Assembly: GCA_964016885.1 (NCBI GenBank)
Contig: OZ024742.1
Location: forward strand, 306,218,001-306,282,000
Source of the DNA: Eledone cirrhosa
Taxonomy: Eukaryota
Direction: 5' to 3'
DNA length: 64,000 nucleotides
Positions 2,046 through 56,213 of the stretch are shown in pieces (the stretch's first letter is position 1; every line of letters begins with the position of its first letter). The notes beneath the pieces are model-generated. The model did no database searches. It was not told where the DNA came from and was given only the letters and a program-made list of their open reading frames with translations. The translations under genes and the position numbers were made by a program.

Positions 2046-2220
2046 AGGAACAAGTAAGACGCCGACGGCTGAGCTCAAGCCGTTTCGACGGCTAATGTCG
2101 AAACGGCTTGAGCTCAGCCGTCGGGGTCTTACTTGTTCCTATTACCCACTCTACTACCCTAAGTATTGAGTACTTTGGTGCGTTATGGTCCACCTGGTTC
2201 CTTACCACATTTCCTTCGCT
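2046..2220 (+). mobile_element. F3 mini fold-back element (inverted head plus tail)
   Basis: 2046-2089 is the reverse complement of 2097-2140, followed by the F3 tail; (TA)n on both sides. Confidence 0.85.
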
Positions 2221-2262
2221 ATATATATATATATATATATAAATATATATATATATATATAT

Positions 2263-2430
2263 TAGATATAGAATAGCTTTCACCGTATTTTTCAATACTC
2301 ATCTTTTGCCATGTATCTGAGGGTTCTAAACCCCATTATCAGACTAAAATTTATTTAGTCAAATAATACGGTGAAAGCTATTCTATTTTCTAATTTCAAA
2401 CCTGCTCACTGTTTCAAAACATATTTATTC
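2263..2430 (+). mobile_element. Small fold-back insertion in (TA)n
   Basis: TAGAATAGCTTTCACCGTATT (2269-2289) is inverted at 2365-2385; the right arm contains GAAA-GC-TA, like an HHR 3' half. Confidence 0.5.
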
Positions 2431-2621
2431 ATATATGTATATATATATATATATATATATATATATTTCGTTGACAAATATATCAATATGCCCAGACATG
2501 CAGATATATTGCCGTTGGTATGACAGTGTGGTTTTAGCTCAATGTAGGATAACTAGTATACTACAGAGCCGTTATAGTTATAGGAATAACCATAGAGTGC
2601 TTAGAAATACATTGTTTTATT

Positions 2622-2668
2622 AGCTAACAGTGTTTCATCCATACACCATGGCAGGAATCATCAGAGCC
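2622..2668 (-). ncRNA. Minimal type I hammerhead (F2)
   Basis: GGCT-CTGATGA-TTCC...GGAT-GAAA-CACTG-TT-AGCT on the minus strand. Confidence 0.65.
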
Positions 2669-4126
2669 TATAAACATGAGTATATCAGCAGTTGCATGCT
2701 CCATCGAGCTGCGTCACCAGAACAAGGTTAAAGGACCAATAGGGGGGTCCCGAGGCCAGCGCTATATGGAAAAAGACAGAATACATGATGCACATAATGT
2801 CATAAAATGTCTTAAAAATTTAAAGATTTAAAATTACACCAAAGTTTTATCACTTAAATGGTGCAATAGATGATAAAGAGGTTGGGAGAGGGTAGCAAGG
2901 GATGAGTGAGGATATTACTCAGCATGATCAGAAACAATAGGGAAATAATAAAAAAATAATAATAAAAAGTACAAAAATACAGGGATAAGAAAAGAGATAA
3001 ATATAAAAATACAAAACAATAAAGGAACAAAAAACCCGGAACCCCCCTCCCACTACCCCCAAATTATGAGACAGAGGAAAGCATAGATGCATCAAAGCAC
3101 AAGCAGTGCAAACACAGGGTGCACAGGCAGATTATGAGAGATTGCAAGCATGAGTCTGTGAAAAGAATAGTTGGTTAGCAGTGGTGCAGCCTTACATGTA
3201 TGATAGTCCATATGAGGGATGGTGTACTCCAATTATATCGCCTTGTAACAGGTCGATTCTCCTTATCATATCCGCACCCTACGAACCACATCGATATGTT
3301 CCAGTTCCGAACGTTAAGTGAGATAGCACTATTTTTCCAAAAGCTATACCCAGGGGATTTATCACCATAGGCGGTCAGGGAAATACACCTAAATCTAAAA
3401 TAAAAAATAAAAGAATGTACTAAGAGTTAAAGAGATGTATGGCACATATACAGCCGGTACAGATGTGAGAAAATTGAAAACACGCCAGGCCCGCAGAAAC
3501 TGGCATTCACCAAATCCTCACGTTCGGTCGCTCAATCCAATGTGCCAGGTGAAATTCACTGTATGTCCAAGTTGGCGTTCAACCAATGTATCGCACCGCA
3601 TACAACTGTGCCACTATTCTTTTGACAGACTCATGCTTGCAAACTCTCTTAATCTGCCTGTGCACTCTATGTTTACACTGGTTCTGCTTCGATGCATCTA
3701 TTCTTTGCTCTGTCTTATATTCTGGGGGGGATTTCCGGGCTTTTTGTTCCTTTATTGTTTTGTATTTTTATATTTATCTCTTTTCTTACCCCTGTATTTT
3801 TGTACGTTTTTATTATTTTTTTTAAAATTATTTTCTTATTGTCTCTGATCATGCTGAGTAATACCCTTATACATCCCTTGCTATCCTCTCCCAAACTCTT
3901 CATCATCTATTGCACCATTTAAGTGATACATTTTTGGTGTAATTTTTAGTTTTTAAATTTTTAAGATATTTTATGACATTATGTGCATTATGTGCATAAT
4001 GTACTCTGTCTTTTTCCATATAGCGCTGGCCTCGGGACCCCCCCCCCCCCCCCTGCTGATCCTTTAACCTTGTTCTGGTGACGCAGCTCGATGAAGCATG
4101 AAACTACGGATATACTCATGTTTATA

Positions 4127-4173
4127 GGATCTGATGATTCCTGCCATGGTGTATGGATGAAACAATGTTAGCT
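4127..4173 (+). ncRNA. Minimal type I hammerhead (F2, stem I mismatch)
   Basis: GGAT-CTGATGA-TTCC...GGAT-GAAA-CAATG-TT-AGCT. Confidence 0.55.
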
Positions 4174-4700
4174 AATAAATCAATGTATTTCTAAGCGCTC
4201 TTTGGTTTTTCCTATAACTATATATATATATATATATATATATATATATATATATATATATATATATAATGACGAAATAATATCTGAGTTCATTTTGTTC
4301 CAATTTTAATATACGCAGTGAACAGCCAGAGTCGATAGACCCGAGAATAGAATACACTGTTAAAATTATTCTGGCTCCTTGTGTTCTGAGTTATCAGGCA
4401 TATATTGTTGGTGTAGTTAATCAGTCAACAAGGGGAGCAACGCGTTAATAGAGTGAATCGTTGTGCAAGAAATCGGGCTGGATTATCGCTGCGAAAATAT
4501 CTCCTTAATTCCACCACTCCTCCTTTCCACCCCCACCAACCTCACACACATACACATGTATATTCATTATCAGAACAGGTCTTTATATATATATATATAT
4601 ATATATATATATATGTATTATATATAATTATATATATATATATATATATATATATATATATATATATATATATATATATATATATATATATATATATATA

Positions 4701-53383: not shown

Positions 53384-53463
53384 CAAACGCTGATGAACCG
53401 GGGTTATTTCATTTCTTTCAACAAGTTACTGGCGAAACAGATCACTTTGGATTTGTACGTGTT
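53384..53463 (+). ncRNA. Type I hammerhead (array copy 1)
   Basis: CTGATGA; CCGG/CTGG stem II; GAAA; ACAGATC/GATTTGT stem III; GUA site after 53457; stem I imperfect. Confidence 0.8.
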
Positions 53464-53911
53464 TTATATAGTTATAGAGGTATTTATTTACGCTTTAATT
53501 TATATGTTTAATTATCGTGTGTATACTCTGCCTTTTTTAGCTTATAGATTCCATACACTGGTGATTTTTCCCTGTTTTATTGATAGCGCACTGTATTTCT
53601 CTCTAGTGTGTTACCTTTTCAACATATTGTATTTTAAAGAGCTCAGGATTACCTCTCCTTTGAGCACATGATTTACAGGGAATGACGAGAGTCTATGTAT
53701 CGTGATATTTCGCTCCCTATAACAGTCTTTTCTCTCTCTCTGTTTGGTTGAGCACATATCTCTAAGTGGTTTTGGGCTGCCCTTTCTAGCAGCTCGTTCC
53801 TCAGAGACCAATGGTTCAATGCCCTTAAACACGCTGTGACTTTTCTCTCCCACGTGTAGCTGGACGGTCGCTTTAAAATTCTCTTAGTGTTGTCTGAAAT
53901 GTATAGCCTTG

Positions 53912-53990
53912 CACACGCTGATGAACCGGGTTATTTCATTTCTGTCAACAACTTACTGGCGAAACAGATCACTTTGGATTTGTACGTGTG
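53912..53990 (+). ncRNA. Type I hammerhead (array copy 2)
   Basis: Stem I CACACG/CGTGTG; CTGATGA; 7-bp stem III; GUA site after 53984. Confidence 0.88.
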
Positions 53991-54574
53991 TTATATAGTT
54001 ATATAGCTATTTATTTACGCTTTAATTTATATTTTTAATTATCGTGTGTATACTCTGCCTTTCATAGGTCATAGATTCCATACACTCGTCGTTTGTCCCT
54101 GTTTTATAGATAGCGCAATGTATTTCTCTCTAGTGTGTTACCTTTTCAACATATTGTATTTTAAAGAGCTCAGGTTTTCCCCTCCTTTGAACACATGATT
54201 TACAGGGAATGACGAGAGTCTATGGCTCCGTTAATGTATCGTGATATATATATATATATGCTGTTGATGTATTTTTTATTAATTGAGGGCTTGTTTAAGA
54301 GTTACCACAAGCTGGGAATATATATATATATAATGGTTGTTATGGAAGACTTTTCAATGCAGATGGGTATATCTTCGGGTAACAAAATTAACTACCAGTA
54401 GGAAGAAAGAGGATAGAGAGGAAGAGAAATGTAAAATTTATCATCCACTTCATTCCCTGTTTCCTACTGTCAGTTGAATTTGTTACACGGAGTCTTATCC
54501 ATCTGCATTATAGAGGCTTACAAAAGATATTTTTCATATCCACAATCCTTCAAGCAAAATTAAACTCTCTCATT

Positions 54575-55440
54575 CTTCTTGTGACGCTAAACTCCACTAA
54601 TTGCAGACTGCGCATTAACGTGTGATATCTCTCTCCCCAAAGTTCGGTCACTAGCAGCAAAGTTCAAAGAGCAAAGATCAAGTCCAGTCCTTAAATTGAC
54701 ATTGTCAAGCCATCGTGTTGGCTGCCGGCCTCTGCTTCTCTTAACACCCGACCTTCCCTCCAGGCATAACATACTCATACTACGAGTTGATCTTTTTATA
54801 GGGCCGTATAGTTTGAGTACTCTAGACTTGACAATTGATGTAATCGTCTAAATTTGGTAATGTTGAGCAGCTCACTGATCGCTGAGCCACTTACCAGTCA
54901 TAAGCCTCATAACGTGGTTCTGAAATGTAGAGAGCTTCTGAAGTGACCTTGTCGTCCTAATAACACAGTCAAGACCATATAAAACAACTGGAAGGATGTA
55001 ACTATCAAATATCTTAGTCTCCAAATGACAGGAAACTCGTTTTGATGCTAGTTGAAAACTGCCCAAACCTAAAGCGAGTCGATATTGCGCAGCAACCATT
55101 ACATTGTTGTTTGATGATAGTTTGTGACCGAGATATACAAACTCCGTAACTTGAGCAATTTACTGGTTGTAGATTGTGTTGGAAATTGACATTGTTTTTT
55201 TCAGTTGTCATACATTTTGTTTTGGAGATATTGATGTGTAAGCCAGCCTGCAGCAAATGTTTGGCCAGTACATTCAGAAAGTCGTGCAGATCAGTTCTAG
55301 AGTGACTCAAGATGGCCAGATCGTCTTCATAGCTAAGATTTGACAGGATTTTACCTCCTATTTGATAGCTAGAGGAGCATTCTTCTTCAGTTTGGTAGAT
55401 AAGTGCAGCTATATCTATACAGAAAAGAAGTGCTGATAGT
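54575..55440 (-). pseudogene. RTE-like LINE RT and 3' end, degenerate
   Basis: NLSYEDDLAIL, GLHINISKTKCM, ILPVVLYGLD, RSRGRQPTRWLDNV. Confidence 0.85.
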
Positions 55441-55994
55441 ACTGCTTAACTCACTTCAAGACGTCTATACAGCGTATAGTTCCAAAGTCTGTTCTGATAT
55501 ATGCTGTTGATGTATTTTTTATTAATTGAGAGCTTGTTTAAGAGTTGCCACAAGCTGGGAAGTTTCACGTTGTCAAAAGCTGGTCAAAACACTCTCATAT
55601 ATACATATGAATGATATATACACACACACATATTCATATGTATATGCGTGTGTATGTGTGATCGCCGCCTTAATACACACGCATACACACACACACACAC
55701 ACACACACACACACACACAGACGCACACACACACACACACACAAACACATACAAACACACACACAAACACACACACACACACACACACACACACACACAC
55801 ACACACACACACACATATATATATATATATATATATATATATATATATATACAGAATAAAAAGCAAGTAAGCTAATCAGAAGAGAAAAGTGATTAATTAT
55901 GCAGATTACAAGCCGGTAATGTATTCATGAATCTTTGTTCTCTCATTCATTTTAAATGTTATATATATATATATATATATATATATATATATAT

Positions 55995-56213
55995 TTATTA
56001 ATATAACAGATTAAAGTTTAAGCAAAGAATCGCTGCTTTCACCCTTAACGGGATCTTCAGAAGATCCCGTTAAGGGTGAAAGCAGCGATTCTTTGCTTAA
56101 ACTTTAATCTGTTATATTAATAAATATTTGCTCTTCGGTTCTTATATATTTGATATATATTTTCCTTATCGAGCCCTCTTTGGATTTTAGTCTTCAATTT
56201 TATTATTATTACT
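55995..56213 (+). mobile_element. F1 mini palindromic element
   Basis: Perfect ~63-bp arms centred at 56059 (GATCTTC-A-GAAGATC), followed by the tail. Confidence 0.9.

Follow-up and report, generated by a model that had tools for sequence, protein, structure and literature searches.

The DNA examined here is a 64,000-nucleotide stretch of Eledone cirrhosa (GenBank assembly GCA_964016885.1, contig OZ024742.1, positions 306,218,001 to 306,282,000 of the forward strand), referred to below as the window. It is AT-rich animal DNA, rich in (TA)n runs, and self-comparison showed many families with copies that stop at (TA)n, often as inverted pairs, with Penelope-like elements (PLEs) of the Hydra clade and non-coding passengers among them. 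From the letters of the window alone, an earlier reading (the original prediction) had proposed that a 7-mer, GAGYNCY, recurs near the 3' terminus of otherwise unrelated families. Here we report that GAGYNCY is the 3' arm of a conserved bulged hairpin found in Hydra-clade PLEs and their non-coding passengers.

Two families, PLE-A and PLE-B, retain coding remnants in the window, as does the family F4 (Table 1), and the frames align to residues 152-698 of a full-length relative with 28-55% identity, the PLE-A fragment giving a Pfam GIY-YIG match of E=0.0013 that is weaker than the Pfam cut-off. The CxCX5C linker, a defining feature of the Hydra clade (Craig et al. 2021, PMC8557442; this and other papers are cited from passages bearing on the subject), occurs in the PLE-B frame as well as in 92 of 111 scorable homologues, and is unreadable in the frameshifted PLE-A. 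RWK and DKT N-terminal motifs occur in 46 and 45 of 53 long homologues, respectively, the window copies being 5'-truncated, and Hydra proteins carry a conserved RxRxR segment ahead of a WFNPP motif, with R in 61%, 89% and 95% of rows. Hammerhead cores are present in PLE-A, F4, F5, F6, an inverted insertion at 2467-4217 and a tandem element, and the type I motifs allowed families to be oriented independently of GAGYNCY. Hammerhead-like folds with non-canonical cores were also seen in F3/PLE-B (43815-43925) and F1 (56050-56100). (TA)n adjoins both ends in all 13 window insertions examined. Judged by predicted reverse transcriptase (RT) and C-terminal GIY-YIG domains, the CxCX5C linker, the hammerhead and insertion into (TA)n, the window elements can be assigned to the Hydra clade, for which PMC8557442 describes the same C-terminal GIY-YIG domain, linker, hammerhead near the 3' end and (TA)n insertion, with inverted, 5'-truncated copies tailed on one end.

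All 11 sites named in the original prediction are present, ten exactly where placed and the eleventh, given as 39303, at 39302. Distances from motif start to the next (TA)n run are 52, 57, 67, 51, 43, 46, 39, 42, 90 and 39 nt, with no (TA)n run within 200 nt of the site at 10504, so that the proposed spacing of 30-60 nt from the element end holds for eight of the 11 and the remainder fall outside it. Across the window the 7-mer is modestly enriched (65 matches vs 47.0 ± 6.8, with 1 of 100 shuffles as high), while the positional bias that had been anticipated is pronounced, with 16 TA flanks carrying the motif 30-60 nt upstream, where 200 shuffles with TA runs kept fixed averaged 1.9 such flanks and never exceeded 5. 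Nine of the 11 sites belong to the set, that at 4731 as a fragment, and the site at 50003 is doubtful. The site at 10498..10504 (minus strand) was rejected as a chance match in a hammerhead-bearing repeat unit, with no hairpin and 4 nt beyond the family end at 10828. This ~310 nt unit forms direct and inverted repeats over 10213-10828, has no Hydra hairpin after its end at 10828 and is possibly a passenger of another clade. The motif is thus real, but since every true site has a complementary arm upstream, the actual unit is the bulged hairpin rather than the 7-mer, and there are two per element unit.

Because the 16 window flanks copy ~7 families, and the motif was chosen after the flanks had been seen, the decisive test is one in independent Hydra leaders taken from other organisms. 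Using a profile of 61 Hydra proteins we collected 102 loci from public contigs, in which 36 reading-frame starts were found, and the 35 with at least 110 nt upstream were used as leaders. GAGYNCY lies at most 140 nt before the reading-frame start in 29 of the 35 leaders (300 shuffles: mean 3.0, maximum 7) and is present twice in 22 (mean 0.1, maximum 1 in as many shuffles); counted by similarity cluster, the motif occurs in 23 of 29 and two motifs in 17 of 29. The antisense strand, where 20 of the 35 leaders match, is invalid as a control because GAGCACTC nearly equals its own reverse complement. In Hydra-clade elements the twin hairpins lie ~55-75 nt apart between the hammerhead and the start codon, and hairpin 2 stops ~20-60 nt ahead of the start codon. 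Some of the loci (L077-L102), animal retroelements of the Hydra clade that are flanked by (TA)n, come from contigs that belong to several bacterial genome bins or to one symbiont assembly, a placement that is likely host contamination.

The hairpin can also be seen by eye in four of the six Hydra consensi in the supplement of PMC8557442. In Hydra-2_Amil the motif is 32 nt from the end and in Hydra-2_Ajap 31 nt, while the Hydra-1_Ajap leader holds it twice; two variant hairpins occur in Hydra-1_Crog, and the Hydra-1_Amil consensus ends just ahead of the first hairpin when compared by eye with locus L067. In the published Naiad consensi, a text search that overlooks matches broken across line ends gave 12 matches of three 7-mers in ~200 kb, which is near the estimated background, with none seen in a hairpin context, and a scan of viral contigs gave 14 pattern matches, none confirmed as a Hydra relative. 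With no enrichment seen in those Naiad consensi, the signal is probably not a general feature of (TA)n-targeting PLEs. The proposal of a conserved cis-signal common to autonomous PLEs and non-coding passengers is supported across the Hydra clade, with a covarying structure and a position tied to element ends.

The hairpin has the consensus RCTC-Y…R-TN-GAGY-ACT-N-T. After removal of 3 near-duplicate leaders, 40 of 45 leader motifs have a complementary 4-mer upstream compared with 29 of 265 background motifs elsewhere in the loci, the starts of the two arms being separated by 12-30 nt. In all 40 of these leader hairpins the next stem pair above the bulge, a position outside the selection criteria, is Watson-Crick (C:G in 30, T:A in 10), which is seen only in the register with two bases bulged on the 3' side; T is the first bulged base in 40 of 40, and T is also found at +8 in 40 of 40. 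In a wider hairpin set the pair above the bulge is Watson-Crick in 70 of 72, and the lower stem varies on both arms (5'/3': GCTC/GAGC 36, TCTC/GAGA 5, GCAC/GTGC 2, ACTC/GAGT 1). A covariance model was built from 8 equal-length hairpins, all from non-window loci, and in the alignment fitted to it 98.8% of cells are paired, with 0 of 500 shuffles as high and four pairs varying on both sides, although such an alignment is biased towards the model's own structure. A plain MAFFT alignment of 53 hairpins was dropped as it left the 5' arms unaligned. When the window was scanned with the model, four F3 copies ranked first and the sites at 32017, 39302 and 31364 were recovered along with two elements overlooked by the original prediction; F1, PLE-A, F4 and F5, which have long loops or 1-nt bulges, were missed because the model derives from equal-length hairpins. 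An Rfam search of the window gave no match at gathering score among the matches listed (150 of 171), nearly all of which were microRNA models on microsatellites and palindromes.

Two classes of (TA)n junction are found past the hammerhead, short ones at a distance of ~40-70 nt from it and long ones, which take in hairpin 1, at ~90-127 nt; short ends stop just 5' of hairpin 1 and long ends just 5' of hairpin 2. The motif is therefore near the element 3' end, as originally proposed, before long ends, but short ends have no motif upstream of them, and for this reason the informative geometry is that of an end lying a few nucleotides 5' of a hairpin. For 13 of the 36 (TA)n junctions lying past a hammerhead there was no read-through copy; the other 23 had a match, and in 15 of these a hairpin lies 0-12 nt beyond the end. 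For short ends the distance to the hairpin has a standard deviation of 2.0 nt compared with 10.6 nt for the distance from the hammerhead, which rules out the hammerhead as the ruler. Of 29 window flanks with any second match, ten have a hairpin ahead, nine of them at 4-9 nt; among the remaining 19 are 5' junctions, matches in low-complexity sequence and three ends that precede hairpins which the strict descriptor overlooked. The short end at 4218 lies 7 nt before the 2534..2569 hairpin in the read-through arm, and the tandem array end at 54244 lies 6 nt before hairpin 2 of read-through units. Ends mostly coincide with a short internal TA patch, most having 2-7 nt of TA homology at the junction, and among 19 distinct ends, selected for a hairpin within 70 nt, 17 lie 4-11 nt before the hairpin compared with 8.0 expected from equal or better TA patches nearby.

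Thirteen inverted insertions in the window were chosen by hand from the self-comparison, and each of them pairs a hairpin-bearing (long) end with a hairpin-less (short) one, an extra hairpin match at 2047 being stem III of a hammerhead. In raw genomic reads, which carry the same species label, come from reduced-representation libraries and in part fit two places, (TA)n is joined at 9435, 3 nt before the F1 hairpin, in 2165 and 2307 reads.

Some inserts consist of hairpin 1 and the tail only, or have their 5' junction at or near the base of hairpin 1 (window 31481-31550, 43974-44029 and 4722-4769; locus L084 near 2890 and L090 near 505), and copying from the long site may frequently break off close to the short one. 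At 1248-2014 F1 and F3 are joined head to head, both with long ends, between two (TA)n runs. Among reads over 9386-9436, ~800 per run match the 50-nt hairpin segment of F1 alone and continue on both sides into other sequence, one flank being a GC-rich hairpin followed by CTAG, which we take to resemble a Helitron 3' end; another repeat family may have captured the F1 hairpin.

We consider it reasonably likely that the hairpin is the predicted binding site from which the element protein primes reverse transcription on an AU-rich patch a few bases 5' of it. The hairpin would fold in read-through or circular RNA, where the template order would be hammerhead, AU patch, hairpin 1, spacer, AU patch, hairpin 2 and start codon. 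The element protein would bind a hairpin, the nicked (TA)n target would pair with the AU patch just 5' of the bound hairpin and copying would proceed away from the hairpin, such that a start at hairpin 1 would give a short end and a start at hairpin 2 a long end, with a tail formed of hairpin 1 and the spacer, that is, the hairpin-to-hairpin interval. As priming at hairpin 2 would copy hairpin 1, this would explain why the motif was originally seen 30-60 nt inside long ends. Passengers are likely mobilised through the same hairpin, since they have kept it. More speculatively, two protein subunits, one per hairpin, might prime on opposite target strands and so produce a head-to-head insertion with a one-sided tail. 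Taken furthest, and here we are tentative and inclined to doubt, the leader could be a two-site RNA ruler, in which two TAR-like hairpins would dock the halves of an RT-endonuclease dimer, and the halves would start copying 4-11 nt upstream, one on each strand of a cut (TA)n target; one event would yield the head-to-head, one-sided-tail insertion, and any RNA with the 25-40 nt hairpin would become insertable cargo.

Stem-loops that recruit a retroelement's protein are already known from stringent long interspersed nuclear elements (LINEs). In stringent LINEs and their short interspersed nuclear elements (SINEs), such as UnaL2 and zebrafish L2 (PMC4176376, PMC1636434), a small stem-loop is likewise common to the autonomous element and its passengers and is needed for mobilisation, but there it is a single stem-loop 5' of the priming site at the RNA 3' end, whereas the Hydra hairpins are two, with the element ends 5' of them, each lying 3' of its start site and not copied by the event that it likely directs. 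A closer likeness is to the Poseidon element of Anolis (Frangieh et al. 2024, PMC11167929), the protein of which primes in vitro at two internal sites bracketing the tail, depends on RNA located 3' of them and, by prediction, forms a dimer, features that the scheme proposed here resembles. Poseidon start sites lie inside the open reading frame, in an AC-rich stem-loop without homology to the target, and the binding motif is unidentified in the passages of PMC11167929; unlike these, the proposed Hydra sites belong to a different clade and fall in leader AU patches with a match to the (TA)n target. For the Hydra clade itself, the relevant passages of PMC8557442 mention no conserved RNA structure besides the hammerhead, suggest that the tail arises by endonuclease cleavage and give a tail of 30-40 nt, compared with ~55-75 nt here.

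The bulge also recalls the arginine-sandwich bulge of HIV TAR and 7SK RNA (PMC6189040), in which a bulged U is likewise followed by G-A-G in the stem. A bulged pyrimidine precedes the G-A-G stem in 40 of 40 leader hairpins, where G-A-G was selected for and U was not. This is a resemblance only, as the Hydra hairpin is circularly permuted and without the TAR loop, and the U-A-U triple would be missing from variants that have GTGC or GGGC arms or no bulged U; with needed bases lacking in these variants, the likeness to TAR, together with the RxRxR segment, is a lead only. Non-LTR (long terminal repeat) retrozymes (PMC7229834; bioRxiv 10.64898/2026.07.22.740005) are likewise non-coding hammerhead-bearing units thought to be mobilised by PLEs. 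No recognition signal is named in the passages of these two papers, and the bioRxiv paper is without the terms 'hairpin', 'stem-loop' or 'recogni'. We found no description of the Hydra hairpin in the literature searched, which included PMC4209133 and PMC7229834 and covered few subscription papers and no Repbase annotations.

Several points weigh against priming from the hairpin. The motif is absent from six of the 35 leaders, and no hairpin was seen by eye in the published Hydra-1_Obim consensus (PMC8557442 supplement); many hairpins are weak, at about -4 to -8 kcal/mol, and G-U and A-C pairs are similarly rare (2 vs 3), so the strand that folds, RNA or DNA, is not told apart. Eight of the 23 read-through matches are without a hairpin, of which inspection by eye took seven to be spurious, being matches with 2-3 mismatches in 20 nt or to antisense or other ends, and one to be a non-Hydra element, and the F6 short end lies 17 nt ahead of its hairpin. 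In addition, the 19 ends and the 13 inverted insertions are selected samples, and the distance from motif 1 to the long end is also narrow in the loci, being 37-46 nt in 13 of 14 and 24 nt in one. This last spacing is what would be expected if the protein bound a hairpin on the 5' side of the start site, at ~40 nt from the long end, a geometry in line with the original prediction and with stringent LINEs, which recognise a 3'-tail stem-loop (PMC4176376, PMC1636434). We nevertheless find a LINE-like geometry improbable, because short ends have no upstream hairpin, the corresponding distance spreads over 39-90 nt in the window and hairpin 2 is left without a role. That the motif is a chance pattern picked after the fact could draw on the modest window-wide enrichment and on the two of 11 cited sites that fail, but the count in the leaders lies far above the shuffle maximum and the hairpin recurs, with covariation, in independent loci and published consensi, and we regard this explanation as refuted for practical purposes.

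Since wobble pairs do not tell the strand, the hairpin might instead be read in DNA, as single-stranded complementary DNA, a displaced strand or a cruciform, either bound by the GIY-YIG endonuclease, which would then cut the TA patch a set distance away, or acting as a stop for copy-back synthesis, so that ends would be made by cutting or termination instead of priming. Some GIY-YIG enzymes do cut away from their binding site, the arms of one insertion can be 98% identical, as copy-back would give, and no G-U bias favours RNA. Furthermore, the D. virilis Penelope endonuclease needed tail sequence for cleavage of plasmid DNA, as cited by Frangieh et al. (PMC11167929). We think recognition in DNA unlikely: hairpin 2 is outside the inserted DNA, yet long ends sit before it, and any cut or stop must therefore act on a longer precursor; a plain double-stranded site is ruled out by the widely differing loop lengths and the exchangeable pair; and the two ends of Poseidon coincide with RT start sites (PMC11167929). 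A role in expression or packaging, the hairpins acting as an internal promoter or, close to the start codon, as a translational operator, with ends set only by internal TA patches pairing with the target, would suit the placement of hairpin 2 shortly before the start codon, the TA homology at most junctions and the internal promoter of Penelope (PMC8557442). It is nonetheless rather improbable given that even ends whose homology is 0-1 nt fall 4-11 nt before a hairpin, nearby longer TA patches are often unused, ends precede the hairpin about twice as often as expected and non-coding passengers retain hairpins. Priming of reverse transcription from the hairpin thus remains the reading that we prefer.

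Table 1. Coding remnants, hammerheads, hairpins and an example insertion in the window (positions within the 64,000 nt)
Feature	Position	Strand	Remarks
PLE-B frame, RT and GIY-YIG	41008..42579	+	predicted Hydra clade; 5'-truncated, frameshifted; 3' region is F3
PLE-A frame	5890..7830	+	predicted Hydra clade; 5'-truncated, frameshifted; second fragment 24850-25252
F4 endonuclease remnant	13542-13843	+	
PLE-A type I hammerhead motif	9129..9170	+	copies 4894 (-), 26272 (+)
F4 hammerheads	15970; 13242; 57239	+; -; -	
F3 hairpin 1 (3' region of PLE-B)	2148..2174	+	ACTC-TAC..GTA-TT-GAGT-ACT; long end 52 nt past motif start
Further F3 hairpin copies	1943-1969; 16281-16307; 40263-40289	+; -; -	four F3 are top covariance-model matches
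PLE-A hairpin 1	9236..9278	+	long loop, decayed bulge CC; not found by strict descriptor or covariance model
PLE-A hairpin, second copy	24696-24737	-	TC bulge
F4 hairpin 1	13103..13130	-	F4 is a 5'-truncated element, predicted Hydra
F5 hairpin 1	23863..23885	-	one-nucleotide bulge, ACTC-GTCC-CAT-GGAC-T-GAGT
F6 hairpin 1	31349..31370	+	copy 31517-31538 (-); 3' arm alone 44010-44016 (-)
Hairpin 1 of 31802-32062 inverted insertion	32000..32023	+	GCTC-TGTA..TACA-TG-GAGC-ACT
F1 hairpin 1	56130..56177	+	long AT-rich loop; copies 9384-9432 (-), 1283-1331 (-)
F1 fragment	4731-4737	+	retains 3' arm and part of upper stem only
Hairpin of 38665-39391 element	39283..39308	+	90 nt ahead of element end
Hairpin of 2467-4217 inverted insertion	2534..2569	-	overlooked by original prediction; 3' flank not ACT
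Twin hairpins at 53100 and 53183	53100..53227	+	non-coding hammerhead-bearing tandem element 52941-54243; repeated at 53641, 53712
Twin hairpins 66 nt apart	63625..63711	-	3' flank not ACT; likely leader of another passenger
Doubtful member	49997..50003	-	3' signature present, 5' arm absent
Example inverted insertion	16236..17147		long end and hairpin at 16236; at 17147 a short end, reaching to 8 nt before hairpin 1

Other repeats in the window and loci were noted in passing. Five non-Hydra hammerhead-bearing ends, in L090 (+358, +4223), L029 (+318), L091 (+2060) and L087 (-1268), finish in TGTGCAA plus 1-2 bases before (TA)n, with differing sequence upstream; the sole member of this set with a reading frame has a CX2-5CxxC linker (Neptune-like), and this clade may possess a terminal signal of its own. 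The stretch 26744-29848 (minus strand) is a GC-rich LINE encoding RVT_1 and zf-RVT domains, with a decayed fragment of the same family at 48721-48910. At 31594-32236 lies an element with ~130-bp imperfect terminal inverted repeats, into the internal TA run of which the 31802-32062 Penelope stub is inserted. A dispersed ~200 nt family (10974-11162, 12570-12822, 35446-36065, 58953-59081 and 63727-63929) is likely a SINE, and nested symmetric inverted repeats between TA-rich runs occupy 56245-56865 and, unlike Hydra stubs, end identically on either side.

How Penelope-like RT start sites are chosen, and why insertions are inverted and tailed on one side, are stated as open in PMC8557442. A covarying hairpin of 25-40 nt, found across animal phyla and at a measured distance to both kinds of end, offers a precise target for mutation and makes the origin of the Penelope tail directly testable. 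It also provides a sequence test by which non-coding retrozymes and stubs can be assigned to a Hydra partner, and helps in finding the orientation and limits of Hydra consensus sequences. Should the hairpin be all that the protein needs, it would be a minimal cis-signal for RNA-templated insertion into (TA)n.

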